Virus record (IMG/VR): IMGVR_UViG_3300029922_000015
Span: 64,001-128,000 of that record
Source of the DNA: a virus
Length of the DNA: 64,000 nt
Direction: 5' to 3' (one strand)
In this document: piece after piece, positions 28,412 through 62,224 of the stretch
How positions within the stretch are numbered: position 1 is the stretch's first letter
Layout of the letters: each line of letters opens with the position of its first letter
Translations under genes and position numbers: made by a program
The notes under the pieces: model-generated
Seen by the model: the letters and a program-made list of their open reading frames with translations, nothing else
Database searches by the model: none
Told to the model about the DNA's origin: nothing

Positions 28412-28927
28412 ATGAACATTTTCGCCGTAGCCGATCAACCCGAAATTGCGGCTAACCAGCTATGTCTTAAGCATGTTTGCAAAATGGTTGTGGAAAGCAC
28501 CCAAATGCTTTGCTCGGCTTTTCCTGAAAATACGCCAAACCTTCCTTATGCAAGGACACATTATAATCATCCTTGCGCGGTTTGGACACGTCAAACCTTG
28601 GGTAATTTTAATTGGTTAATGATTCATGCCATGCATTTAGCTGATCGATTCGCTCGTGTTTATAATCACCAGCATAAATGTAAAGAAATGCTTTTTTCTT
28701 TGTCGAGCATCGCGAACAATCTAGATCGGAGTATTCTTGTTAATAGGGAGAAAACGCCCTTTCCATTAGTTATGCCAGATAGATATAAAATTCCCCTTAA
28801 TAGAATCGCTTCTTATAGGAATTATTATATTCACGAGAAAGCGTCTTTTGCGAAGTGGGAATCCCTAGAGAGAATTCCTCCGTGGTGGCCGTTCAGAACT
28901 AACGCTTTTGTAAGGATTTCCAGATAA
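28412..28927 (+). CDS. pyrimidine-dimer DNA glycosylase/endonuclease V-like protein
   Basis: MNIF..KHVCKMVVESTQML..THYNHPCAVW..YRNYY..K. Confidence 0.8.
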   Translation: MNIFAVADQPEIAANQLCLKHVCKMVVESTQMLCSAFPENTPNLPYARTHYNHPCAVWTRQTLGNFNWLMIHAMHLADRFARVYNHQHKCKEMLFSLSSIANNLDRSILVNREKTPFPLVMPDRYKIPLNRIASYRNYYIHEKASFAKWESLERIPPWWPFRTNAFVRISR

Positions 28928-29319
28928 AGTATTAACGAATAAATGAAGTCCGTAAAACTTCGGCTCTGCGGAGCTAGTTAGTTTATTATTTGGGAAATAA
29001 ATAGAGAGAAAATAAATGCACAAAAATGGAGTTCTTTAAAGGAAAAACCGTATTGCCTCTCTTCCTGAAAGGTAAGAAACCGCGCCATTAAAGCATTCAG
29101 TTAAGCTTGTGTGACCTTAACAGGAAACAAAAAAGATAATCTGTCGGATCGTTTCTCCGATATTTTGTTACAAGCGAAACTGTAAAAGTATTTCTACGCG
29201 CCCCATGCGTTAATTGAGGGATTTAGCTCGCGTAGCTATGGTCTGATAGTTGATTGAACCCTCCTATCAGACCAATCAATTTTCTTGACAGGAGATAAAT
29301 CAGATGGTAATATTAAAAT

Positions 29320-29820
29320 ATGAAGAATTTTGTCGATATACGTCGTAGCTTTGGAGAGGTGATAGTTACGGCTTGTCTTCCTAGCTTGGAAGATTTTGTC
29401 AAACAAGTAAGCAAAGATGATGTTGAGAATGTATTAGATCATTGCGATACGGCGGCTCGCGCTAAGTTTTATTCGCCCGCTTTGAATTATAGTTATCGTT
29501 TTGATTATAATCGAATTTTTGGAGATTTAGGTCAACGTATAGAAAGAGAGGGATGGTTGCGCCCTCGCTATCAATGGGGCGATGTGACTCTGTGTAACGA
29601 AGAGACGTTTAATGTTGTGCCTTTTGTTAGTCGCGGCATTGGAAAGGAACAAAAACTTAAGTTTCTAGGAGTATATTCCGAAGAGGATTTAACTCGACTG
29701 TCGAAATCTTTAAAAGCTGTTATTGAATTTGCTCGCGACTATCGCCGGGAAATAACAATTCGTTGCGAAGTTGGAGATGAAAAAGAAGAAGACAGCAAGG
29801 CGATAGAAATTCAGATTTAG
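29320..29820 (+). CDS. hypothetical protein, partner X of the amidoligase-GATase module
   Basis: shares SRGI..G.(Y/F)S pattern with 34892-35410. Confidence 0.7.
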   Translation: MKNFVDIRRSFGEVIVTACLPSLEDFVKQVSKDDVENVLDHCDTAARAKFYSPALNYSYRFDYNRIFGDLGQRIEREGWLRPRYQWGDVTLCNEETFNVVPFVSRGIGKEQKLKFLGVYSEEDLTRLSKSLKAVIEFARDYRREITIRCEVGDEKEEDSKAIEIQI

Positions 29821-29821
29821 C

Positions 29822-30493
29822 ATGAAATATATTTCTAAAATTGGCCTTGAAATCGAGGGAGGATGGTTTTCGACTGAAGACAAGCCGGAAAGTCTTACAA
29901 GCTGGCATCACGACGATAGCGTTCGTAACATCCGCAAAACCCAAAACGGAGTTCCTATTCGTTTTATTGGCGAGGCGGTTTCTATACCCCTCGCGAATTT
30001 GAGCGCAGTCCACGAATGGATTAACATTTATTGGCCCGACCGTAAAAATAAGAGTTGTGGTTTTCACATTCATACTTCGTTCGTTGATCCTAAATTTTAT
30101 TGGTATCTTGTTAATGAGGATTTTTATATTCAATTTTATAAGAAAATGAAAGCGGTAGGCAATAAGCTTCACCTGTCCGCTCATTTCTTTGATAGATTAA
30201 TGGGCAAGAATGTTCACTGTCAGAAATTATTCAAGGGCCGCGAACAACTTTACGCTCTAACCAAAACAAATAATCGGTATTCTCAGCTTAATTATTGCTA
30301 CTCCTTGCACGGCACACTCGAAAATCGTTTGCCTTGCGCCATTCTTCCCATAAGGAAGGCTCAGCAATACGTTGATGAGTATATTCAATTTATCGAAAAT
30401 TATTTAGAGGCTCATCCTAAACCCGAGATTACCGAGTTTAATTGGGAAACAAAAGTTGAAGTCGAAGATGAAAATGAGAAAATTTTGTCTTGA
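29822..30493 (+). CDS. putative amidoligase (COOH-NH2 ligase) paralog 1
   Basis: GLEIEGG, DDSV, GEAVS.P, CGFHIH, TLENR. Confidence 0.85.
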   Translation: MKYISKIGLEIEGGWFSTEDKPESLTSWHHDDSVRNIRKTQNGVPIRFIGEAVSIPLANLSAVHEWINIYWPDRKNKSCGFHIHTSFVDPKFYWYLVNEDFYIQFYKKMKAVGNKLHLSAHFFDRLMGKNVHCQKLFKGREQLYALTKTNNRYSQLNYCYSLHGTLENRLPCAILPIRKAQQYVDEYIQFIENYLEAHPKPEITEFNWETKVEVEDENEKILS

Positions 30494-30530
30494 CAATTAA
30501 CGAAACAAGTGATATAATCTTAAAAAATCT

Positions 30531-31235
30531 ATGTGCCTCATTATTTATTCAAAAAGCGGTCGTCCTAAGCAAGAGTATATCGAAAATGGAGAAGCCTCCA
30601 ATGACGATGGAACGGGTATCGCGTGGATTGAAAATGGTTACTTGCGATATATCAAAGGAATCGATTTGAAGGAAACGATTAAGCTTTCTCAAGAATTGCC
30701 GCTAGGATATATTATACATTTTCGGATGGCCTCCATTGGTGGAGTAGACCCACAACTTATTCATCCCTTTCCTGTGAATGTACACGTTCCTTTGCAACAA
30801 AAGGGCAAAGCTAACAAACTATTGTTTCATAACGGACATTGGCATTCGTGGAAACAACATTTGATGGATCATCTCAGCCCTAAAGTTATTCTTCCAGAGG
30901 GTAAATGGAGCGATACGCGGGCGATTGCTCTTTTGACGGCGATTCACGGAAAGAACTTTTTGCGGACTATTGCCGACGGACAAGCCGGATGGGCGGGTAA
31001 ATTCGCTTTGATGACGCCTAGCAAAACTACTTTAATCGGTCGTTGGGAAGAAGAAGAAGGAGTATTTTATTCCAATGCTAATTATAAATGGAGCTATCAT
31101 CGCTCTAATTATAATTATTCTGGATCGGCTAGCGATCATAGTTATCACAACGGACTTCGCACGACCCACCAAGATCGTAGTTTATCGCCTCACTCTCAAA
31201 GAGAGGCGGAATATTTGCAAGGATATGATCATTAA
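30531..31235 (+). CDS. class II glutamine amidotransferase (Ntn hydrolase)
   Basis: Cys2 nucleophile, NDDG.G, HFRMASIG, HPF, HNG, SDT. Confidence 0.9.
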   Translation: MCLIIYSKSGRPKQEYIENGEASNDDGTGIAWIENGYLRYIKGIDLKETIKLSQELPLGYIIHFRMASIGGVDPQLIHPFPVNVHVPLQQKGKANKLLFHNGHWHSWKQHLMDHLSPKVILPEGKWSDTRAIALLTAIHGKNFLRTIADGQAGWAGKFALMTPSKTTLIGRWEEEEGVFYSNANYKWSYHRSNYNYSGSASDHSYHNGLRTTHQDRSLSPHSQREAEYLQGYDH

Positions 31236-31324
31236 AAAAGATCAAAAAGTTCTTGACAAAATGAGCAATAAGTAGTATTATTGTTCAAGTCAGAAAACCA
31301 AACAAACAAAAAAGAAAGGCCAAA

Positions 31325-31567
31325 ATGGCACGTATTGTTAAACTCGCAGTTCACGACACCGATTCTTACCCTTCTCAGAAGGTTAAGTCGAAGATCGGTA
31401 AGACCCTCCTTAAGGGAGCGCAGACCGTCTTTGTTACCCGCAAAGACCTCGCTACCGTCTTGAAGAGCGGTGCCTTCAAGAAGGCTCCTAAGACCGAAGC
31501 GTTCCTTAAGGAACTCAAGGCTTCTGCAAAGAAGAACGGTGCTTACCACATCAAGCTTTCTGTCTAA
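31325..31567 (+). CDS. small basic protein, probably highly expressed
   Basis: own promoter, GAAAGG ribosome-binding site, biased codons, downstream terminator. Confidence 0.75.
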   Translation: MARIVKLAVHDTDSYPSQKVKSKIGKTLLKGAQTVFVTRKDLATVLKSGAFKKAPKTEAFLKELKASAKKNGAYHIKLSV

Positions 31568-31596
31568 TTGACAGATTGTTTGTAAGGTGAACCTTA

Positions 31597-31634
31597 AAAG
31601 AGAGTCAACTGATAAAACGGTTGGCTCTCTTTTT
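31597..31634 (+). terminator. intrinsic terminator
   Basis: AGAGAGTCAAC/GTTGGCTCTCT hairpin followed by a T run. Confidence 0.8.
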
Positions 31635-31650
31635 CCTTTAGTAGAAGGCT

Positions 31651-32319
31651 ATGAATAAAAGCTCTAAAATAGATCGGGTGGGGGTTGAATTAGAAGGAGG
31701 CTGGAAGCAAAACCGCCCTCAACAAAAGCACATGCATGGCGATAGTTCGGTGGAAATACCGAATTATGAGGAATTTTGTTACGATGAGGATGGGGATTTT
31801 GATATGTGCGGCGAAATAGCTAGCTCCCCATTTGCTAGTTTGCATCATCTTTCTAGATGGATTCGCGAATCTTATCCCGATACAACAAACGCTTCATGCG
31901 GTTTGCATATTCATATTAGTACCAAAAAGCAAGAAGACTATGCGCTGCTTATGCATAAGAAATTTTATAATATATTCCTTGTCGCAATGGAAAAATGGGG
32001 ACAACGGCATTGTTCCTCTAGATCGAGCGAGGATCGTTCCTTTTGGGCTCGTTTTAAAGGAAATAATGATTTTTGCGTAAGAGAACATTATCCTATCAGC
32101 CAAATTAAAGGTCAAGATGATAAATATACCCAATTAAATTTTTGCTCATGGCGAGAACATCGGACATTAGAATGTCGTTTGTTTCCAGCTTTTAAAACGG
32201 TGGATAAGAGTATTTCGGGCACGGCTTTCTTTATAAGACTTGTCGATAATTATCTTCGGACAATGAAACCTAACGATTACACAAAAAAATACTTGCAAAT
32301 TATTAATCCTAGAGTATAA
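31651..32319 (+). CDS. putative amidoligase paralog 2
   Basis: GVELEGG, DSSV, GEIASSP, CGLHIH, TLECR. Confidence 0.85.
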   Translation: MNKSSKIDRVGVELEGGWKQNRPQQKHMHGDSSVEIPNYEEFCYDEDGDFDMCGEIASSPFASLHHLSRWIRESYPDTTNASCGLHIHISTKKQEDYALLMHKKFYNIFLVAMEKWGQRHCSSRSSEDRSFWARFKGNNDFCVREHYPISQIKGQDDKYTQLNFCSWREHRTLECRLFPAFKTVDKSISGTAFFIRLVDNYLRTMKPNDYTKKYLQIINPRV

Positions 32320-32714
32320 TGAGTTGGATGAAATATCTAAACGAGAACGAAGACGAGATGATCGCCCGTTTATTGGACGAATCTATAGATAACGGATTCG
32401 AACATCCTCAGTATGCTTTTGAAGTAGAAGACGAAACGGATTTTCAAACAATTTTTCAAAATGCGTCCGATGAGACAATTATCGATGGGGAATATACTGT
32501 CATTGAAGATTCGGATGAAATAGAAATTTCGCCCGATATGGATTTAAGGCCGGAAAGAGAACGGCATCGTTGTAAACTTAAACTAGGGAAGATACCTTAT
32601 AATGTGGCTTGGACTAACGGGTTCTATCATAAAAGAGGAGGGAAAATCCTTTACAAAAAGGGCTCCCGTATGCGAAAAGCTTTCGAAGCGGGTAGAAGCG
32701 CGGGGAGCCAATAG
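32319..32714 (+). CDS. acidic hypothetical protein
   Basis: 131 aa ORF, start overlaps the upstream stop. Confidence 0.65.
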   Translation: MSWMKYLNENEDEMIARLLDESIDNGFEHPQYAFEVEDETDFQTIFQNASDETIIDGEYTVIEDSDEIEISPDMDLRPERERHRCKLKLGKIPYNVAWTNGFYHKRGGKILYKKGSRMRKAFEAGRSAGSQ

Positions 32715-32794
32715 ATATCGTATTCATTACGATAATAAGAAGAAAAAGAAGGAAGATCGTTTTCTTGAAATGAATTTTCTACTAAAAAATCCCC

Positions 32795-33037
32795 ATGTCG
32801 CCAAAAATTTTATTTGATAATACTAAAGACGTGGAAGCTATTTCCACCAAACTTTTAGAGCCAAGTTCTGATGATTTAAAATTCATGGCTTCGAGATTTT
32901 CTAAAGAACAATGGGAAATCCTTTGCGCTTCTTCTAATTTCATGGATATGCTTTATAATGATTTTAATCGTTCTCGGTTTTTGGCTGAAAAAATCCTAGC
33001 GGGAAGAGGAGACACGATAAACGCGCAAAATAAATGA
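32795..33037 (+). CDS. hypothetical protein
   Basis: 80 aa ORF. Confidence 0.6.
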   Translation: MSPKILFDNTKDVEAISTKLLEPSSDDLKFMASRFSKEQWEILCASSNFMDMLYNDFNRSRFLAEKILAGRGDTINAQNK

Positions 33038-33471
33038 AGTCTTTTAATATTATTCCCGTTTCTCTATTTTCCCTCTATTGTGATTATCTTTGCAATTGGA
33101 GTGAGGGCCATTTATGTCGGGCGACGATAGAATATATTAACTTGACTTGTTCTGATTATGCAATCGGCTATGCGGCTCACGACGAAACGGGGCCAGTTTC
33201 GATTTCTATAGCCTCCAAAACCTTTCCTTTCGCCGCCATCGCTACCAGACCGGATAAAAGAGGCCAAGGGCTTGCTAAAAAGGTTCTAAAACAAACGATT
33301 AATCACTTTCGTTTAGCTGGTTTGGTTTATGAAACTTGGGTAGCGGCGGATAATCCTAGTTCTATTGTCTTGTTAGAAAGCGTGGGCTTGAGAAAAGTAA
33401 GAGAAGAGACGAAAAACCGGAGAAGTACCGGAGAATATTTAGCTTTTAAATATTCTTCAAAAAACACTTGA
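33034..33471 (+). CDS. GNAT family N-acetyltransferase
   Basis: TRPDKRGQGLA acetyl-CoA motif; DNPSSIVLLESVG. Confidence 0.85.
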   Translation: MKSFNIIPVSLFSLYCDYLCNWSEGHLCRATIEYINLTCSDYAIGYAAHDETGPVSISIASKTFPFAAIATRPDKRGQGLAKKVLKQTINHFRLAGLVYETWVAADNPSSIVLLESVGLRKVREETKNRRSTGEYLAFKYSSKNT

Positions 33472-33529
33472 CTTTTGGTTAAAGATGAGTTATTATGTAT
33501 TCGAACAATAAAGGCGTAAATAAAATATT

Positions 33530-33730
33530 ATGAGAAGTCGCGAAATTAAAATGAATGCTCTCTATGATTGCGAGGGGGTTATCTGCCGAGCTAAGAAGCA
33601 ATTGAAGAATGGGCGTTTTTTGGTGACTCACCATAAGTCGTTTCATTCTATTGTTGAGCCTGTCAAGCTAAAGCGTATAGGTGCAAAACGTATCCAGTCT
33701 TATTTGAGAGAAGTCGGAGTAGATATTTAA
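33530..33730 (+). CDS. hypothetical protein
   Basis: 66 aa ORF with own promoter. Confidence 0.6.
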   Translation: MRSREIKMNALYDCEGVICRAKKQLKNGRFLVTHHKSFHSIVEPVKLKRIGAKRIQSYLREVGVDI

Positions 33731-33807
33731 TTTGTTAGTTAGCAAACTAACTGGTGGAGGCGGCGGGTTGACTCGCTCCTAGATGGGCTGCGCATATCTA
33801 AAACGCA

Positions 33808-34077
33808 ATGGAACGAATAATTAAACCTTCTCATGGAACTTACAGGGGATGTCCTATGTATCGGTTCTACGGAGACTATGTAAAAGGTCGTTGGATAGGC
33901 AGATATACTCGTCTTTATCCACAAGCTCTTGAGTCAATGCCTAACATTTATTTTCTTCCCGAAGTCGTTATTAAAGGTATTGCTATTTGTTGGCCGTTTA
34001 TAAAAGAAAACGGGGACAACTATACTCCCCTTAGATATGTAGAACCAAAAAATTCTATTTCTCTGTCTCCTAAATGA
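33808..34077 (+). CDS. hypothetical protein (paralog of next gene)
   Basis: FYGD..KG and WP......N..PL.Y motifs. Confidence 0.65.
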   Translation: MERIIKPSHGTYRGCPMYRFYGDYVKGRWIGRYTRLYPQALESMPNIYFLPEVVIKGIAICWPFIKENGDNYTPLRYVEPKNSISLSPK

Positions 34078-34361
34078 CTTTAACAAAGCTATTTATTAAA
34101 CCCCGGCGGATACCTTTACAAATGCATATCCATAATTTCTATGGAGATTTGGATAAGGGTTATTTTAAGCTTTATGAACGATATTTTTGCAAATCGTTTG
34201 CTTTAGAAAGAGAAGCGGAAGGATTTCGTTCGATTGTTTGGAAAATAGTTCCAATGGAGTTTAGAAATAATCCTAATTTAATTTTAGCGTGGCCTTATCA
34301 CAGAGATAAGCGAGGTAATTTTATTCCTTTACAATATTGCGAAACGATAATTAGTGCTTGA
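34074..34361 (+). CDS. hypothetical protein (paralog of previous gene)
   Basis: FYGD..KG and WP......N..PL.Y motifs. Confidence 0.65.
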   Translation: MTLTKLFIKPRRIPLQMHIHNFYGDLDKGYFKLYERYFCKSFALEREAEGFRSIVWKIVPMEFRNNPNLILAWPYHRDKRGNFIPLQYCETIISA

Positions 34362-34392
34362 CACGCGACGAATCCTTTGATAACATATTTTT

Positions 34393-34869
34393 ATGCGATA
34401 TATTGCCGACGTTCAGTATAAGTATGATCCGATTACTAATAAGGCGTCACTTTATCTTTATTCTCCGACAATAGCGGCGATGTATGAAGAAATCGGTTTC
34501 GACACTCGCAACTACGAGTCGGAAAGATATGAGCTTTTAGAATCTCTTTCTGCTTATTTAGTTAGAGGAATTTCAATTGAAAATGAACATCGATTCGAGC
34601 GGCGCGGCACGAAATACACAGTTTTTACGCAAAAATGCGCTAATTGTAATCTTTTGATTGAGTGTGATGGGGGATGGGGAGTAAATATTTCCCATATTCG
34701 AGGAGTTCTTATTGGTAAGGGTTTCAGTTATAAAATAAAGCCATTGCCCGTTGCGAAAACGGAAGCGGTTTTGATAGCTTATAGCGAAGGGGTTCGCGAG
34801 TATTATCGCGCTCTTAAAAGCCATTTAGATTTAAAAAGAAAATACGATAAAGTTCTTGACAAAGAATAA
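34393..34869 (+). CDS. hypothetical protein, possibly a remote partner-X paralog
   Basis: 158 aa leaderless ORF. Confidence 0.7.
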   Translation: MRYIADVQYKYDPITNKASLYLYSPTIAAMYEEIGFDTRNYESERYELLESLSAYLVRGISIENEHRFERRGTKYTVFTQKCANCNLLIECDGGWGVNISHIRGVLIGKGFSYKIKPLPVAKTEAVLIAYSEGVREYYRALKSHLDLKRKYDKVLDKE

Positions 34870-34891
34870 AACATAGAATAAGATCATAACA

Positions 34892-35410
34892 ATGAGTAAT
34901 AGCACTTTCGAGATTAAACGGACTCCCGATGGAACGTTGATTACGATTCAAGCCCCATCCGTGGAAAGAATTTTTCGATCCCTCGCTCGCGAAGCCCGAA
35001 ATCCTCTGGCCCTAAGCGGAATCAATGTCGATTGCTGGTGGGGCGATCAAACCGACCGATTCGTTCGTAACATGAGCGAAATTTTTGTTCACGAAGCGAC
35101 CGTTTTGAATAAAAGTAAAACGGGGGTGAAAGAGGAAGATTTGGTAGTTCCTACTTGTCGTTCTGATTATCTTTTTCAAAATAATAATGTCGGGGTTCGT
35201 TTACTAATGAGCCGAGGCATCTCTGAGAAAAAGCAATTTTTGATTCCCGGCATGTTTTCTACCGATACCATTCAAAAGGTGGCGTTGGGTTATAAAAAGG
35301 CCATGAGCTATCTTATTAAGGAAGCGGGTAAAGAAGTTGTTTATAAGTTTCAAATTGCTGAGCCCGATGACGCCGAAAAGACTCAGGTTCTTGAATTCAC
35401 TAATATCTAA
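34892..35410 (+). CDS. hypothetical protein, partner X of the amidoligase-GATase module
   Basis: similar to 29320-29820; translationally coupled to the ligase. Confidence 0.7.
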   Translation: MSNSTFEIKRTPDGTLITIQAPSVERIFRSLAREARNPLALSGINVDCWWGDQTDRFVRNMSEIFVHEATVLNKSKTGVKEEDLVVPTCRSDYLFQNNNVGVRLLMSRGISEKKQFLIPGMFSTDTIQKVALGYKKAMSYLIKEAGKEVVYKFQIAEPDDAEKTQVLEFTNI

Positions 35411-36120
35411 TGTTTCGTCATATCTCTAAAATTGGCCTTGAAATAGAAGGCGGATGGTTTACGGATAAGCGTCCCGTTGATTTTAAGCACGATAGTAGTG
35501 TGCGTTTTCATCGCCGAGACTTTAAAGTAAGAGGAAAAGAACAAACGCGCCGAATTGATTTGGGCGAAGTAGCTTCCCGTCCTTTGGAATCAATCGCGGA
35601 GTGTGCTAATTGGATTAAGACTTATTGGCCCGACAAGAAAAATGGAACGTGTGGCTTTCACATTCATATTTCGTTGAAGAATAAACTTCTTTATTCGTAT
35701 TTGATGGACAAAGAATTCAATGAAGCTTTTTTGCATTCCGCGCTTATGTTTGGACGAGCCCATAGGATGTCTCGCGATTTTTTCCATCGTTTAGAGGGTA
35801 AGAATCGTTATTGTAAGAAAATGTTTAAGCCGGAAGAACAATTGTACTTTCAGCATAATCACCAATATACCGAAAACAATCCTCGCTACGCTCAATTAAA
35901 TTATTGTTTTTCGACTCATGGAACGGTTGAAAATCGTCTTCCTACAGGAGCAATGCCGAAGGGAAAAGCTATTCGCACAGTAGAATGGTATGTAGATTTG
36001 GTAGAATCTTACCTTGATAAAAAAGAAGATAAGCCTATTTTGGTTCAAGTCGAAGGGTCTGACGAAGAAACCGAAGAAATAGACTTGACAAACTATGAAT
36101 TTGGAGTAAATAAATCTTGA
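35410..36120 (+). CDS. putative amidoligase paralog 3
   Basis: GLEIEGG, HDSSV, GEVASRP, CGFHIH, TVENR. Confidence 0.85.
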   Translation: MFRHISKIGLEIEGGWFTDKRPVDFKHDSSVRFHRRDFKVRGKEQTRRIDLGEVASRPLESIAECANWIKTYWPDKKNGTCGFHIHISLKNKLLYSYLMDKEFNEAFLHSALMFGRAHRMSRDFFHRLEGKNRYCKKMFKPEEQLYFQHNHQYTENNPRYAQLNYCFSTHGTVENRLPTGAMPKGKAIRTVEWYVDLVESYLDKKEDKPILVQVEGSDEETEEIDLTNYEFGVNKS

Positions 36121-36165
36121 CAAATTTTGGATTTTGGCTTATACTGTAGGAGAACTAAAAAATAT

Positions 36166-36981
36166 ATGTGTTTGATAATTGCAAGTAGAACTGGTCGTCC
36201 GAAAGAGGAATATATCCGAAACGGATTCGCGAATCATCCCGATGGAACTGGTATCGCGTGGTTCGAAAAAGACGGCGTTCATTATAAAAAGGGCTTGACC
36301 GTCGAAGAAACGATTACAATGTCCAAGGAATTGCCCGTTGGATACGTCATTCATTTTAGATGGGCGTCCGTAGGCGGAAAGGATAAGTCTTTGATCCACC
36401 CCTTTCCGATTTCAAAAGATGTTATTTTGCGTCCCGAAGGAACAGCGAAGTCTGTTTTGTTTCATAACGGTCATTGGGATAGTTGGAATAATGTTTTAGT
36501 TAATCACCTTTCATCCCGTTTGGTTTTGCCCACTGGAAAATGGAGCGATACGCGGGCGATTGCCTTTCTTGTATCTATTCACGGTACTCCATTCCTAAAT
36601 TTGCTAGACGTTGGCAAGTTTATTGTGATGGCGAATGGGAAGCAGTACGCTTTCGGAGATTTTCAGGAAGAAGATGGGGTTTATTACTCTAACAGTTCTC
36701 ACAAAAATTTTATCCGAGGGGGTTGCGGAACTGGATTGAACAATGGAACTTCGCGAGTCGGTACGGCATACGAGCCGATTACGCCTCGATCAACCAGACC
36801 GCCAATTTCTCAGCCGTCTCAACCTTTGTTAGGTGATACCCAAAGAATTACTCCACAAAGTAAGGTGGGCGCGGAAGAGCGCCGCGTTCTATCGGCGGAA
36901 GAGTTTCAAGAGCTTCGCGAATATTTTGAAAAGGATTTAAATAGTAATCCTATTTCCGTTTCCGCGACAGGGGGAGCTTAA
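36166..36981 (+). CDS. class II glutamine amidotransferase (Ntn hydrolase)
   Basis: start reassigned to MCLII; HPDGTG, HFRWASVG, HPF, HNG, SDT. Confidence 0.9.
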   Translation: MCLIIASRTGRPKEEYIRNGFANHPDGTGIAWFEKDGVHYKKGLTVEETITMSKELPVGYVIHFRWASVGGKDKSLIHPFPISKDVILRPEGTAKSVLFHNGHWDSWNNVLVNHLSSRLVLPTGKWSDTRAIAFLVSIHGTPFLNLLDVGKFIVMANGKQYAFGDFQEEDGVYYSNSSHKNFIRGGCGTGLNNGTSRVGTAYEPITPRSTRPPISQPSQPLLGDTQRITPQSKVGAEERRVLSAEEFQELREYFEKDLNSNPISVSATGGA

Positions 36982-41950: not shown

Positions 41951-42466
41951 GTGAACATTGTAGCTCGTCTATCCAGAATTAAGAAATGCCGTCTTGTTTC
42001 TTTAGTCTATCGTACTAAGAAAAGCGATGAACTGTCAGTTTACCTGATAGCGTTAGGCGTTGACCTTCGCAGAGCTTACGCTCGCGATGAAAAAGTAATC
42101 CGCCTAATAAAAACGCGCGGGCGCGTTCAAACCCAAGCCAAACAGGAAATCCTCGATTCCTTGCGCGAAAGTCTTCGATACGGCTTGGGCAATAACTCTC
42201 GTTATACTTGCCGGGGCGTCTATAAAACGCTTTTCAATGGCTGCAAAATTCATAGGCGCGACAAGACCATTCATTTTTATGGTTTTATAATTCGTAAAAA
42301 GATTCTTGAAGAGGGAAGCTATCCCCTTGTTCGCCATAGTGCTTTGACTCTCGCCAAAATGAAAATTCGTAAGCACATGAAAATTAATCGTTTTCGTCAA
42401 TTTGAATTGAGTCATGTAAAAAAGATAGCTTTCGAAGGAAAAGTCTTGACTTTCTCTCAATTTTAG
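41951..42466 (+). CDS. basic hypothetical protein
   Basis: 171 aa leaderless GTG-start ORF. Confidence 0.7.
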   Translation: MNIVARLSRIKKCRLVSLVYRTKKSDELSVYLIALGVDLRRAYARDEKVIRLIKTRGRVQTQAKQEILDSLRESLRYGLGNNSRYTCRGVYKTLFNGCKIHRRDKTIHFYGFIIRKKILEEGSYPLVRHSALTLAKMKIRKHMKINRFRQFELSHVKKIAFEGKVLTFSQF

Positions 42467-42480
42467 GGTATTATCGCTTT

Positions 42481-43131
42481 ATGCTTAGCAATTTTAAATA
42501 CATTGATAAGGTCGGGTGCGAGCTTGAAGGGGCTTTTTTAAATATTCCCGATCCCGATAACAAATTCCTCGACCACGTAAAAGGAGAAGGAATGTCAATT
42601 TCTCCCGAGGAAAGGGCTATTATCAACGAAAAGAAACTTGTTGTTGGTGAGCGAAATAGCGAACCCTATAAAGCCCTTCTTCCCTTGCGCAAATGGGTGC
42701 GAAAGTTCTGGCCGGAAGTTGTAAATAATTCCAACGGCTTTCACGTTCACGTTTCGTTTAAAGACCCTTCCGTTCGCTCAACAATCGTTGCGTCCGCCGA
42801 CTTCCATCGAACCTTTATCGAAGAATGCAAGAAATTTGTTCTTTCGCCAAAGTATCGTTTTAGTAAGAGCGTAATTGATAGGGCGGCTCATAATATTTAT
42901 GGTCATCATTATCATTCCACCGGAGACAGGCGTTCGGGCGTGACTCCTTTTGCGGATTATGATACCAGTGAATTTCGTATTTTCTCCGGCGATATGACAG
43001 CGAAGCAAGCAAACCTTTGTTTGACTTGGCTTGTATCGTTTATTGAGAATTACTTTGAGGAACATGAACAAGCAACTGTTTGTGATAAGGCGCGGGTTGT
43101 TTATCACTCCTTCTCGGGACAACAAATCTAA
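42481..43131 (+). CDS. putative amidoligase paralog 4
   Basis: GCELEG, GERNSEP, GFHVHVS, TSEFRIF. Confidence 0.8.
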   Translation: MLSNFKYIDKVGCELEGAFLNIPDPDNKFLDHVKGEGMSISPEERAIINEKKLVVGERNSEPYKALLPLRKWVRKFWPEVVNNSNGFHVHVSFKDPSVRSTIVASADFHRTFIEECKKFVLSPKYRFSKSVIDRAAHNIYGHHYHSTGDRRSGVTPFADYDTSEFRIFSGDMTAKQANLCLTWLVSFIENYFEEHEQATVCDKARVVYHSFSGQQI

Positions 43132-50090: not shown

Positions 50091-50310
50091 TTCTAATGAA
50101 TCTAAAAACTAAATTGAAATTAGGAATATTAGCACAAACCCTGTTAGACGCTCAGTATAATATTACTGACGCCGTACAAGAAGATATACCACAAGAATTA
50201 TTTAAGCCTCTATGCCAGATAGATGAGCATATACATAAATTTCGATCTTTAATCAAAGATTATACAGAAAAAGTCTTGACTTAAGACGAATATTAAGTTA
50301 CAATAAGCTC

Positions 50311-50799
50311 ATGAAGCTCACCCATCTTAGCTCTACTCAGCCGAGAGAGAAGATAGTTCGAATTGCTGAAAGTATCATTCAGGATTTGGAAATTAAGATT
50401 CCGGTTCACTTGATTTACCAAGATTGCTGGAGCGAGTTTGACAGTGATACGGGCGAGATTATTCCCAATACTGAGCGACATGATATCTCGCACGACGGTA
50501 TTGCGCAAGACGATGGAATAGTTAGGGTTTGTATTAATCCGTCTTTGATGGTTTTCCCGGCGTGGTGGGATATTAATTCGGAACTTAAGAATTTCTATTT
50601 GCGTCGTATTGGTACTTTTTACGATATTGACGAAATGATCCTTTATTATATTTCGCACGAGTTTCATCATCTCTTTGGGTATGAGCATCCGCGCGAAATT
50701 AAAACCATGTCCCGAATTGCTAAATGCGACGAGGAAACGTTGGCCGATTTTTATGCGCTTCGAAATCTGAGCAAGAAAAGGACAAATGACTCAAATTAA
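50311..50799 (+). CDS. putative zinc metallopeptidase (HExxH)
   Basis: ISHEFHH...EETLADFYA (ImmA/IrrE-like spacing). Confidence 0.7.
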   Translation: MKLTHLSSTQPREKIVRIAESIIQDLEIKIPVHLIYQDCWSEFDSDTGEIIPNTERHDISHDGIAQDDGIVRVCINPSLMVFPAWWDINSELKNFYLRRIGTFYDIDEMILYYISHEFHHLFGYEHPREIKTMSRIAKCDEETLADFYALRNLSKKRTNDSN

Positions 50800-56714: not shown

Positions 56715-57011
56715 ATGATCATATTTTTATCCAAGGAACAAAAGGCTAAGTATAAAACTTGGCGGAAAACCATTCAAATCGATACGGAAGAAACCTGTGA
56801 TATTGGTTATGATGTTATAACGGTTACTCGCGGAAGTATCGGAGATTCGATTGTCGCTTCTTACGGAGACGATCAATGCAATCTTACAATTGACGACGAC
56901 GGTTTTCTAATTAATTATGGCGATACTTTTGTTTATCCAGAAATCGAGGTAGACATTCAAGAATATCATAAAAAACTAAAAGAATTCGAGAATTTGCTTG
57001 ACAGCCAATAA
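56715..57011 (+). CDS. hypothetical protein
   Basis: 98 aa ORF. Confidence 0.6.
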   Translation: MIIFLSKEQKAKYKTWRKTIQIDTEETCDIGYDVITVTRGSIGDSIVASYGDDQCNLTIDDDGFLINYGDTFVYPEIEVDIQEYHKKLKEFENLLDSQ

Positions 57012-57032
57012 ATCGCCGTTTATAATATTAGT

Positions 57033-57371
57033 ATGAACACTACTACCTTCACCGCCTCCTCAATGCGCAGTCCTCTCGCTTCCCTCGGCATGTTTAAGCG
57101 CACTAAGCGCAAGTCATGGGAGTTCGACGGACGCGCCGCTCGCCGGAAGCAGACTGGCGAGATTTACAACGGGCCTGAAATTGATATCTCTGAGTATCTT
57201 GTGCAGCAAAACGCAAAAACCGTTAAGATTAAGTTTATCGCTAAGAGCGGAGTTTACCTTTTCCCCGATCGTCGCGAATTCCCGAATAAGGATATCTCGG
57301 GCGCGAAGGAATATGCTCGACTTAAGGGCTTCTCGATTCTCAAGCTCGGAGGAATCAAGATTCGACTTTAA
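57033..57371 (+). CDS. basic hypothetical protein
   Basis: consensus TTGACA-N17-TATAAT-N6-ATG. Confidence 0.7.
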   Translation: MNTTTFTASSMRSPLASLGMFKRTKRKSWEFDGRAARRKQTGEIYNGPEIDISEYLVQQNAKTVKIKFIAKSGVYLFPDRREFPNKDISGAKEYARLKGFSILKLGGIKIRL

Positions 57372-59895: not shown

Positions 59896-61062
59896 TTATT
59901 GTTATAGTAATGTTGGTTATTATTAACATCGCATTCGTTTTGTTGGTAAGTGAAAGCCAGAGCGAGGTAAAGCATTTGAAGGCATTGAACGAATCTTATA
60001 AAGATTATAATCAAATTTGGCGCGATTTAGCTGAGCAACGATTAGATACCATCGCGAAAAGAAACTTTGAAATTGTTAAATTAATTAGAAAGTTGCAAAA
60101 ATATGGATTGGATAAAGAAAAGTGAAAATTTCTCTTGACACGACATAAATCGTATGCGATGATGTTATCCACACGCTAGACAAAAGGAGAATCCATCATG
60201 AAGTAAACTAACATCATTATAAGCAACGGTTAAGAGATTATGAGATTGTAGGCAGTAACTTAAAGAACTAGATAAGGATACAATGAAGCCTCCGTAGCTA
60301 TAAAACAAATTTAAGATTAAAGATAGAGTATAATGAAAAGTTAGTTGGTTAGTTGTTGAGACGCGCTGTTGGAATTCCGAGCCAATGGCGCGTCTCTTGT
60401 TAAAGAAATTTATGGATAGTGTTTATCAAATTTTAGACGTGGAATTTAATCGCAAGAATGGATTTCGCAAGGGGATAGGCCAATATTTTCGAGTCGCGCC
60501 TCAATATGCTCACGTTCTAGTGGTTCAAGCGCAATCGGCGCACGGTCGCATCTATAATGATTGGGCCGAATTTAAGGCGGATAACGAAAGTAGTTTTAAT
60601 TAAAATTTTATGCCCAAAACTTCGCTGTCCCTAATTAAAAGGATTGGCGAGTTTCGGGCTCTCTTTAGAAAACAATAATGAATAATCCAAACCCTCAATA
60701 TTATGTGGCTGTTGCTCAAGCGGATATCGGATTTACGTTGAAGATCATTGTAAATCTAACAACGAGAACTGCGAGGATTTTTTCTTTAGAACAAGCTGTC
60801 AAAGAATGTCGGGCGCAACAACGGTCGGGCGTTGTCGCAACTTATCTTCCGGTTGTATAATATGAATGATCTTGCTAAATCATTAGAGAAGCTAATCAAG
60901 ATGATAGGCGAAAAGACTTGGGTTGATGGATATGAACTTAGATCGGGAATTCACGGAGATGAAGTTTGGGCTAATAAACAAGAAGCCAGCGATTTCTTTG
61001 AAGCCGAAAAGAATTTAAAAGATTATCTTGACAATCAATAGATCGTATATTATTATAACGAT

Positions 61063-61386
61063 ATGGAAAATGCTTCCCTTCTTAATGCCAGCGATAAGAG
61101 ATGGCTTCCGTCTTTTCAAGAAACGGCTGAGCGTTTGGGCGTCGAATATCAAATCTCAATCGAGCCTTACGAGGATAATTATAATCTAACTATTCGTTTT
61201 GAGTTGAATGGTATGAAGCACACAGAAGTTAATTTCAAGCAGGCTACCGAAGAACTGGAAGATTGGGCCGATGGATATCATTCGCGTAAGATTGAAGCAG
61301 AAGCCTATCGGCGAGATGAGCTAGAAGCGTTTGGCGATATGGCAAGCGAATTCGCTGAGCCCGAACCAGAACATCCCGAATTTTAA
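61063..61386 (+). CDS. acidic hypothetical protein
   Basis: leaderless 107 aa ORF. Confidence 0.65.
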   Translation: MENASLLNASDKRWLPSFQETAERLGVEYQISIEPYEDNYNLTIRFELNGMKHTEVNFKQATEELEDWADGYHSRKIEAEAYRRDELEAFGDMASEFAEPEPEHPEF

Positions 61387-61912: not shown

Positions 61913-62224
61913 ATGAAACAATTTCTAGTCATTCAAAACAAGGAAAAGTATCCTTGGCTCAAGGGACATAAATCGCCGCCGGACGAATACCAAACGCCTT
62001 CGATTGGCGTTTACGTTCCTCAGTGGAAAGAATATTTGCTTAGAGTTGACGGCTCGGACGAAGAATATCGCACGCAGGAACAAATTGAAGAGAAATACGG
62101 GGAAACACATACTGTTTTTTATTTTGATTCCCTAACGGAATTAGCCAAAGAATTTATAACGCAAGGTTGGAAAGAATACGTTGACGATAAAGCAAACGAT
62201 TTTAATATTACGCATCAAGATTAA
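61913..62224 (+). CDS. hypothetical protein
   Basis: 103 aa ORF. Confidence 0.65.
   Translation: MKQFLVIQNKEKYPWLKGHKSPPDEYQTPSIGVYVPQWKEYLLRVDGSDEEYRTQEQIEEKYGETHTVFYFDSLTELAKEFITQGWKEYVDDKANDFNITHQD

Follow-up and report, generated by a model that had tools for sequence, protein, structure and literature searches.

Gene pairs encoding an amidoligase and a glutamine amidotransferase (GATase) are widely annotated in phages, and these annotations have been traced to a comparative-genomics prediction of 2009 (PMC10580990, PMC3890496, PMC3517423, PMC6209634), i.e., that of Iyer, Abhiman, Burroughs and Aravind (2009, Mol Biosyst 5:1636) as cited in PMC10580990. Since then, such pairs have been annotated in numerous phages, among which are candidates for therapy and abundant members of marine communities, with a function that is a predicted one. 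The locus described here belongs to IMG/VR virus record IMGVR_UViG_3300029922_000015, of which a stretch of 64,000 nucleotides (hereafter the window), representing bases 64001-128000 of a single 149,934-bp contig, was analyzed. This window, which derives from a large uncultured phage, contains two diverged copies of the gene order X-L-G, at positions 29320-31235 and 34892-36981, where L is a predicted amidoligase, G a predicted class II GATase-fold protein and X a member of a previously unnamed family. The interpretation favored here, tentatively and with a probability of roughly 40%, is that these genes represent a conserved phage module which was duplicated as a block, and in which X and L together write a glutamate-type amide on which G acts.

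In phages of the phiEco32/LUZ24 type the early or DNA-metabolism region likewise contains an Amidoligase_2-type ligase gene with a class II GATase gene after it, the function of the pair being a predicted one, and gp84 of phiEco32 is matched by the ligase profile built in this study (2.6e-7). In phiEco32 and related phages, furthermore, an uncharacterised protein of ~186-205 amino acids is encoded directly upstream of the amidoligase gene and overlaps its start, as is evident for the LUZ24-like phages from a published gene table (PMC3890496). The upstream partner in the window, although analogous in position, represents a different family; a HMMER scan of 14 phiEco32 genes (gp77-gp89 and gp92) detected no X, and the phiEco32 gp85 family was rejected as a remote X homolog (hhalign probability 0.3%). 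The ligases of the window (194-250 amino acids) are considerably shorter than those of the phiEco32/LUZ24 type (367-385 amino acids), as are its GATases, which consist of a bare domain and a tail (234-271 as opposed to 486-676 amino acids), while the trio is duplicated and the ligase has expanded to eight copies. What is new relative to the module predicted in 2009 is the minimal ligase, the bare N-terminal nucleophile (Ntn) domain, the different and previously unnamed partner family, and the duplication amid a ligase expansion. A Pfam scan confined to 12 genes of the 28.4-37 kb region, i.e., those other than the small ORFs (open reading frames) 31325-31567, 32795-33037, 33808-34077 and 34074-34361, detected no gene for an ATP-grasp enzyme, a PF14395 ligase or a GGCT/AIG2 enzyme.

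A further point of comparison is EgtC, the ergothioneine Ntn amidohydrolase, which removes a gamma-glutamyl group installed earlier by the glutamate-cysteine ligase EgtA, a member of the same superfamily as L. In structure, G comes closest to EgtC (PDB 4zfj, 4zfk and 4zfl; Z 14.5, root-mean-square deviation 3.0 over 164 residues), which shares with it the stand-alone class II GATase fold, a similar size and a Cys1 nucleophile. The sequence identity of EgtC to G is, however, just 16%, EgtC is tied with GlmS as a match, and no sulfoxide synthase or other ergothioneine gene is present at this locus; the EgtA-EgtC analogy is offered as a model of mechanism and not as evidence of a shared function. 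The glutaminase domains of the class II amidotransferases GlmS (1xff), PurF (1ecf/1ao0) and AsnB (1ct9) also display the same fold as G (Z 11-14), from which G differs in having no fused synthase domain and in matching Pfam GATase families below threshold.

Composition of the duplicated module

Both loci had been noticed in an earlier, sequence-only reading of the window, and the gene order and coordinates which it reported were reproduced by the ORF list. The genes of the window are small and densely packed, with a GC content of ~39%. The features of the region are as follows:

29320-29820, + strand: X1, 166 amino acids, X family member (XFAM hidden Markov model (HMM), 4.2e-28) and first gene of the two-gene unit X1-L1
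29822-30493, + strand: L1, 223 amino acids, predicted minimal Amidoligase_2-like carboxylate-amine ligase (45% identity to L2; conserved columns)
30531-31235, + strand: G1, 234 amino acids, predicted stand-alone class II (Ntn) GATase-fold amidohydrolase (model, fold matches and invariant residues)
31651-32319, + strand: L3, 222 amino acids, stand-alone ligase paralog between the modules (PF12224, 21.5 bits)
34393-34869, + strand: X3, 158 amino acids, probable, very diverged X paralog (profile match together with its L001 ortholog)
34892-35410, + strand: X2, 172 amino acids, X family member (XFAM HMM, 6.3e-31; model) and first gene of the unit X2-L2
35410-36120, + strand: L2, 236 amino acids, predicted Amidoligase_2-like ligase (PF12224, 24.9 bits; phrog_7469, amidoligase)
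36166-36981, + strand: G2, 271 amino acids from its corrected start, predicted class II GATase-fold amidohydrolase (54% identity to G1)

The close apposition of X to the start of the ligase gene, another feature of that reading, is apparent at both loci: L1 starts 1 nucleotide past the X1 stop codon, while the ATG of L2 overlaps the X2 stop codon (TAATG). X3 is located directly upstream of X2 and is without a ligase of its own.

The X family and its co-occurrence with ligases

No significant BLASTP alignment was obtained between X1 and X2 (E 0.10) or between X3 and X2 (E 0.46), and BLASTP of all X proteins against the ORFs of the genome returned nothing significant. X orthologs were gathered through the neighbors of G homologs on contigs of other phages (designated by three-digit numbers, such as L001), and the profiles of the X1 group and the X2 group were shown to match over their full length (hhalign 87%, E 4e-6, 151 columns). 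Bridging homologs were also identified, as the X protein of L005 matches both X1 (1.7e-5) and X2 (2.3e-5) over their full length, and the X2 ortholog of L001 matches the X1-type protein of L006 at 2.4e-5 (all E-values referring to a 14-sequence database); the X1 orthologs of L001, L002 and L006 are 35-44% identical to X1. The proposal that the two upstream proteins are alike is therefore upheld by the profile match and the bridging homologs, despite the BLASTP E-value of 0.10 between the pair, and the SRGI...G.(Y/F)S pattern from which it arose turned out to be the core motif of the family, which reads NLxFLRxxGxxxGVTFxxxGxYS in a 105-sequence alignment.

When 1.84 billion cluster representatives were searched exhaustively with the X profile, 199 proteins were retrieved at E <= 0.001, and the 149 best of these, which were examined, have a median length of 162 amino acids. 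High conservation is limited to Arg10, Gly14, Glu25, one Tyr, one Asn and two Gly residues, which are found in 82-94% of members, with the Glu being present in 89%. The family has no invariant Lys, Glu or Asp, and its C-terminus varies in both length and sequence. No X-ligase fusion and no ligase or GATase domain was found among these 149 best of the 199 hits, while matches exceeding 200 amino acids were rejected as fusions, representing N-terminal extensions or repeat artefacts (P0039 and P0095). The first X of contig L014 (P0118) and its relatives P0068 and P0152 carry an N-terminal extension of ~100 amino acids which, by eye, resembles the motif of the ribosomal L7/L12 C-terminal domain.

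The third copy of X that had been suggested at 34393-34869 is a probable, very diverged member of the family as judged by profile comparison: the profile of X3 and its L001 ortholog (46% identical) aligns to the 105-sequence X profile with 95% probability (hhalign, E 2e-8, 105 columns), and this ortholog matches the X HMM at 6.9e-7 by HMMER. The match of the window copy by itself is weak (E 0.11 by HMMER and E 0.007 by hhalign).

The X family is absent from Pfam, PHROGs and NCBIfam. A word-indexed search returned no relative of X2, the exhaustive profile search alone having found relatives, and a search for related loci in IMG/VR with G1, X2 and the G alignment as queries returned nothing. Among 50,697 cultured phage records there was no match to the region by megablast, or to X2, the central X member P0050 or L2 by tblastn, while G1 gave weak partial matches only; no relative of X or of the ligase clade of the module was thus found in these cultured phages.

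The structural model of X2 is a confident one (predicted local distance difference test (pLDDT) 91.6, predicted template modelling score 0.83) and exhibits a core of beta-hairpins and three helices, while the final strand, although conserved in sequence, and the acidic tail remain unpacked (pLDDT 52-81). This model has no structural match in the PDB by Foldseek (best E 0.5), among 48,161 chains by VIA (Z 3.4) or in BFVD (E 0.15), a result which is no proof of a new fold. A lead from the ESM Atlas, i.e., a similarity of X to fragments of condensation domains of non-ribosomal peptide synthetases, was rejected (score 0.89, 82 of 256 features shared, poor Atlas model).

On all 11 other contigs examined, a ligase gene follows X directly. 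The close relatives L001 (both modules), L002, L005 and L006 all display the order X-L-G; L001 (171.5 kb) is syntenic across the whole region and carries both modules and X3, while L003 (85 kb) contains two tandem X-L-G sets. The X and L genes overlap by 4 nucleotides in L001, L002 and L006. Six distant X members were, in addition, picked from the profile search blind to genomic context, and in each of the six the next gene encodes a ligase; a GATase gene is then present in L007, L009 and L012, the contigs L010 and L013 end inside the ligase gene, and L014 (2425-5537) has the order X-L-X-L-G, i.e., two X-ligase pairs with one common GATase. The association of X with ligases thus extends to every related and distant contig examined, with a GATase wherever the contig continues. 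X is a new, fast-evolving alpha/beta family, the genes of which always lie immediately 5' of L and in most cases show translational coupling to it. In a large uncultured branch of amidoligase modules, X thus looks like an obligate third component, and this compact family, whose fold is predicted with confidence and which is without detectable relatives, provides a concrete handle for experiments on the module.

The G proteins of modules 1 and 2 form two clades that are united in a single one (Shimodaira-Hasegawa-like approximate likelihood ratio test 99), from which L003, L007, L009 and L012 are excluded. Among the L proteins, a group of L005 and the module-1 clade is sister to the module-2 clade (support 92), to the exclusion of the distant phages and with the six lone ligases located elsewhere, while the X tree recovers the same two clades but not the relation between them. 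Based on the G and L trees, a block duplication of the trio most likely preceded the divergence of the window phage from L001, with X having changed the fastest since. X evolves approximately twice as fast as L and G: the tree path from module 1 to module 2 measures ~3.7 for X as compared to ~1.8 for L and G, and the two modules share ~15% identity in X, as opposed to 45% in L and 54% in G.

Minimal ligases and their expansion

A search of all ORFs of the contig identified eight ligase paralogs, all of them in the window, starting at 29822, 31651, 35410, 42481, 43414, 45928, 54078 and 62231. As two of these belong to the modules, the earlier count of six stand-alone ligases is correct; L1 and L2, which had been described as most similar to one another, are indeed reciprocal best matches among the eight (45% identity, E 7e-57). 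The identification of these proteins as ligases is supported by Pfam for L2 and by paralogy for the others: L2 passes the Amidoligase_2 threshold (24.9 bits against PF12224, with a cut-off of 22), which L3 narrowly misses (21.5 bits), and L1, which has no direct PF12224 match, is placed through its 45% identity to L2. Furthermore, the eight-paralog profile aligns to a canonical phage Amidoligase_2 protein (itself matching PF12224 at 3.5e-30) with an hhalign probability of 87% (E 4e-6), while a sequence-profile search of the PDB with the ligases returned nothing meaningful.

The columns conserved across the eight paralogs read G-x-E-x-E, GE, H-x-H, R and E-x-R, within which E11, E13, E53, H84, R127, E174 and R176 (L2 numbering) are invariant; by analogy with the superfamily, the conserved Glu, His and Arg residues are presumed to constitute the metal and ATP sites. 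Judged by these sequence features, L is predicted to be a minimal (~194-250 amino acids) member of the Amidoligase_2/glutamate-cysteine-ligase-like superfamily of ATP-dependent carboxylate-amine ligases. This superfamily is glutamine-synthetase-like, and its founding member uses ammonia. The ORFs upstream of other ligases (41951-42466 and 61913-62224) were considered as candidate X genes and are not X-like.

L3 overlaps by 1 nucleotide the gene of a 131-residue protein (32319-32714), which has an acidic N-terminal half, a basic C-terminal half and no family match. This gene pair is retained in L001 (11146-12164) and L006 (5353-6394), and the 131-residue protein may be a different ligase partner or substrate.

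Stand-alone GATase-fold proteins

G1 and G2 are the only two GATases among the ORFs of the 150-kb contig, and the close similarity attributed to them earlier is reflected in an identity of 54% (E 3e-73). The start codon of G2 was reassigned to the ATG at 36166 from the TTG at 36127, which yields the N-terminus MCLII as in all 21 homologs. Met1-Cys2 is invariant in 21 of 21 homologs, and Cys2, Arg65, Asn101-Gly102 and Asp128 are the invariant residues of the family, the 21-sequence profile of which aligns to Bacillus subtilis PurF at the HVR, HNG and SDT motifs. In PurF, GlmS and EgtC, the Arg and Asp residues hold the alpha-carboxylate and alpha-amino group of glutamine or of a gamma-glutamyl moiety. 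From what is known of PurF and GlmS, we take the Arg, Asn-Gly and Asp of G to serve in glutamine binding and as the oxyanion hole.

On its own, G yielded no significant sequence match in Pfam or the PDB, the best being that of G2 to GATase_4 (E 0.17, 11 bits), while some relatives of G match Pfam GATase families at E 1e-4 to 3e-4. The AlphaFold model of G1 (pLDDT 84.6), in which residues 191-234 form a disordered tail, matches GlmS by Foldseek (E 5e-6), and VIA returned Z scores of 14.5 for EgtC, 14.4 for the glutaminase domain of GlmS and 13.2 for PurF, as compared to ~5 for proteasome subunits. The earlier classification as a class II Ntn GATase is confirmed by the fold, which is the four-layer Ntn type, and by the conserved residues. 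Because no synthase domain is fused to the glutaminase-type domain and disordered tail that make up its 234-271 amino acids, G is filed by fold and not as a proven amidotransferase; as modelled, it is a stand-alone Cys-Ntn class II GATase-fold enzyme in which the nucleophile, the oxyanion Asn-Gly, the Arg and the Asp have been kept.

The tail of G2 is long and of low complexity. An acidic tail resembling that of single-stranded DNA-binding protein was sought, and none is visible in the G tails of the aligned homologs. Tails of the G2 type (36730-36981 in the window; P0009, P0012, P0013 and L001:15521-16351) end in the motif ER..L(T/S)..E(Y/F)..(L/V)..Y(F/Y)E, which is missing from G1-type tails and may represent a docking peptide.

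Members of the G family also adjoin a PF14395 ligase, and Phage C75C1 (OQ984151.1; L011:3001-3897) encodes a fusion protein in which a G-family domain is combined with a gamma-glutamyl cyclotransferase domain of the GGACT/AIG2 type. The neighboring PF14395 ligase and the cyclotransferase fusion point to gamma-glutamyl chemistry. The fusion gene of C75C1 lies ~850 bases downstream of a canonical Amidoligase_2 gene, with no X present.

Proposed role of the module and alternative explanations

The earlier reading, which took the trio for an amidation or writer/eraser complex with X as adaptor or substrate, is supported in part: it survives the refutation set for X, as the X proteins are homologous and co-occur with ligases, and its two enzyme assignments stand, while a complex of the three proteins, the role of X in it and the choice of ammonia supply or tag removal by G are presumed. 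Given the recurrence of this trio in many other phages, X looks like the third part of the phage amidoligase-GATase pair, and we infer that it is a ligase-specific partner. According to the favored reading, X would have no catalytic activity and would be synthesized together with its cognate ligase, either to choose or present the substrate of this small enzyme or to complete it. With ATP, the X-L pair would form an amide between a carboxylate (most likely that at the gamma position of glutamate) and an amine on a host or phage target, and G would then act on the glutamine-type amide so made, more likely as an EgtC-like gamma-glutamyl amidohydrolase and not as an ammonia donor, in what would constitute a write-then-trim or protect-deprotect cycle. 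This preference is founded on the fact that the characterised stand-alone class II GATase-like proteins known to us (e.g., EgtC) are hydrolases, ammonia-donating class II domains being fused to a synthase, as well as on the pairing of the G family with different ligase types and on its fusion to a gamma-glutamyl cyclotransferase in one phage. The targets would differ between the diverged X-L pairs, with G as the common partner: the fast divergence of X-L as compared to the more conserved G suggests that X-L sets the target while G provides a shared step, which, if true, would explain why large phages multiply ligases more than GATases.

Several observations weigh against this reading. EgtC and GlmS are tied structurally, so that the fold of G cannot separate a hydrolase from an ammonia donor, and the fusion of G to a cyclotransferase can also be read as two different steps, with G acting as a glutaminase. 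Six ligase paralogs are without a detectable X, indicating that X is not generally needed by this type of ligase, while G1 and G2 have their own promoters here, so that there is no strict co-translation with X-L; in several distant relatives the L and G genes overlap instead. The use of glutamate by L is, moreover, an assumption drawn from its superfamily.

Somewhat less likely is that the trio instead forms a three-subunit glutamine-dependent amidotransferase, in which G would free ammonia and L would activate the carboxylate of a target as an acyl-phosphate to yield a carboxamide, with X as scaffold or substrate binder; by analogy, X would be functionally comparable to GatC in GatCAB, or the system to MurT-GatD. 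Such an enzyme would account for the data nearly as well as an EgtC-like hydrolase, given that G keeps every residue for binding and hydrolysing free L-glutamine, that in fold it is as close to the GlmS and PurF glutaminase domains as to EgtC, that L belongs to a glutamine-synthetase-like superfamily with an ammonia-using founding member, and that there is a conserved gene order in which a small protein precedes an activating enzyme and a glutaminase. The C75C1 fusion likewise suggests that G does something other than remove gamma-glutamyl groups. We know of no stand-alone class II GATase domain that delivers ammonia in trans, such domains being fused to their synthase, whereas G has a disordered tail only and its own promoter; the presence of one G for two X-L pairs in L014, and of two G for eight L in this phage, would also be odd for a complex with a fixed channel.

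The tight pairing of X with L is open to two other explanations, in both of which X would have a role different from that of a substrate-selecting partner. X could be a dedicated protein substrate or carrier, on a side chain of which the cognate ligase builds an amino-acid modification, gamma-glutamyl or a short peptide, that G then trims, matures or recycles, with diverged X-L pairs yielding different products. Each L having its own X on the same message and in step, the co-diversification of X with L, the Glu present in 89% of members, and the last conserved strand and acidic tail, which are unpacked in the monomer model and may be exposed, are all in line with this idea, and if true it would represent a new, self-contained phage-encoded protein-tagging or carrier-protein pathway built on a fold without a known match. 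It is nevertheless considered rather improbable because X has no invariant Lys, Glu or Asp and because its variable C-terminus makes a terminal attachment of the LysW or Pup kind unlikely; one-to-one synthesis of a substrate with its enzyme would, in addition, be wasteful. More improbable still is that X acts outside the catalytic cycle and inhibits, chaperones or regulates the ligase, comparable to an antitoxin whose gene comes first in its operon. A small upstream gene that is translationally coupled to an enzyme gene and evolves fast would suit such a role, and the noise-level structural neighbors of X include secretion chaperones (Z ~3); these Z scores are, however, well below the background of 7-8, the maintenance of ligase paralogs without X in the same phage argues against an intrinsic toxicity of the ligase, and no further evidence for a regulator was obtained.

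Transcription units and neighboring genes

Consensus sigma-70-type promoters precede X1, G1, X3, X2 and G2, from which it follows that the transcription units are X1-L1, G1, X3, X2-L2 and G2. The X1 promoter (TTGACA-17-TAATAT) ends 6 nucleotides ahead of the X1 ATG, G1 is preceded by a perfect TTGACA-17-TATAAT at 30490-30518, and the X2 promoter is located at 34856-34884. The G2 promoter (TTGACA-17-TATACT, 36117-36145) lies within the longer TTG-initiated reading of this gene, and an AGGAG sequence is found before the ATG.

Across the whole window, 35 sites match TTGAC[AT]-N16-18-TAnnnT, as compared to ~7.7 in shuffled sequences, and 25 of the 35 have an ATG 3-12 nucleotides after the -10 hexamer (~1 expected), the commonest spacing being exactly 6 nucleotides. 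Most of these ATG codons open a called ORF; examples are the sites at 29285-29322, 34358-34395, 34856-34894, 42446-42483, 50276-50313, 56998-57035 and 61028-61065. On the strength of this spacing, many early genes of the phage seem to be transcribed from host-type promoters into mRNAs that are leaderless or nearly so.

A number of other genes surround the modules. Between the two, a GNAT acetyltransferase (PF00583/PF08445) is encoded at 33034-33471, which occupies the same place in L001, followed by two overlapping small genes (33808-34361; 89 and 95 amino acids) that resemble tandem paralogs when compared by eye, both with a YGD..KG stretch and an end motif of the (L/P)LRY/PLQY type. Upstream of X1, a 171-residue protein with an HYNHPC..W motif is encoded at 28412-28927; it has no Pfam or NCBIfam match, and size-matched proteins occupy the same position in L001, L002 and L006, the motif being shared in L006, the only one compared. 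In two related phages, genes with a NADAR domain (PF08719) are located a few kb from the modules (L001:18026-18646 and L005:4295-4801), which suggests a neighborhood of the early, counter-defence type.

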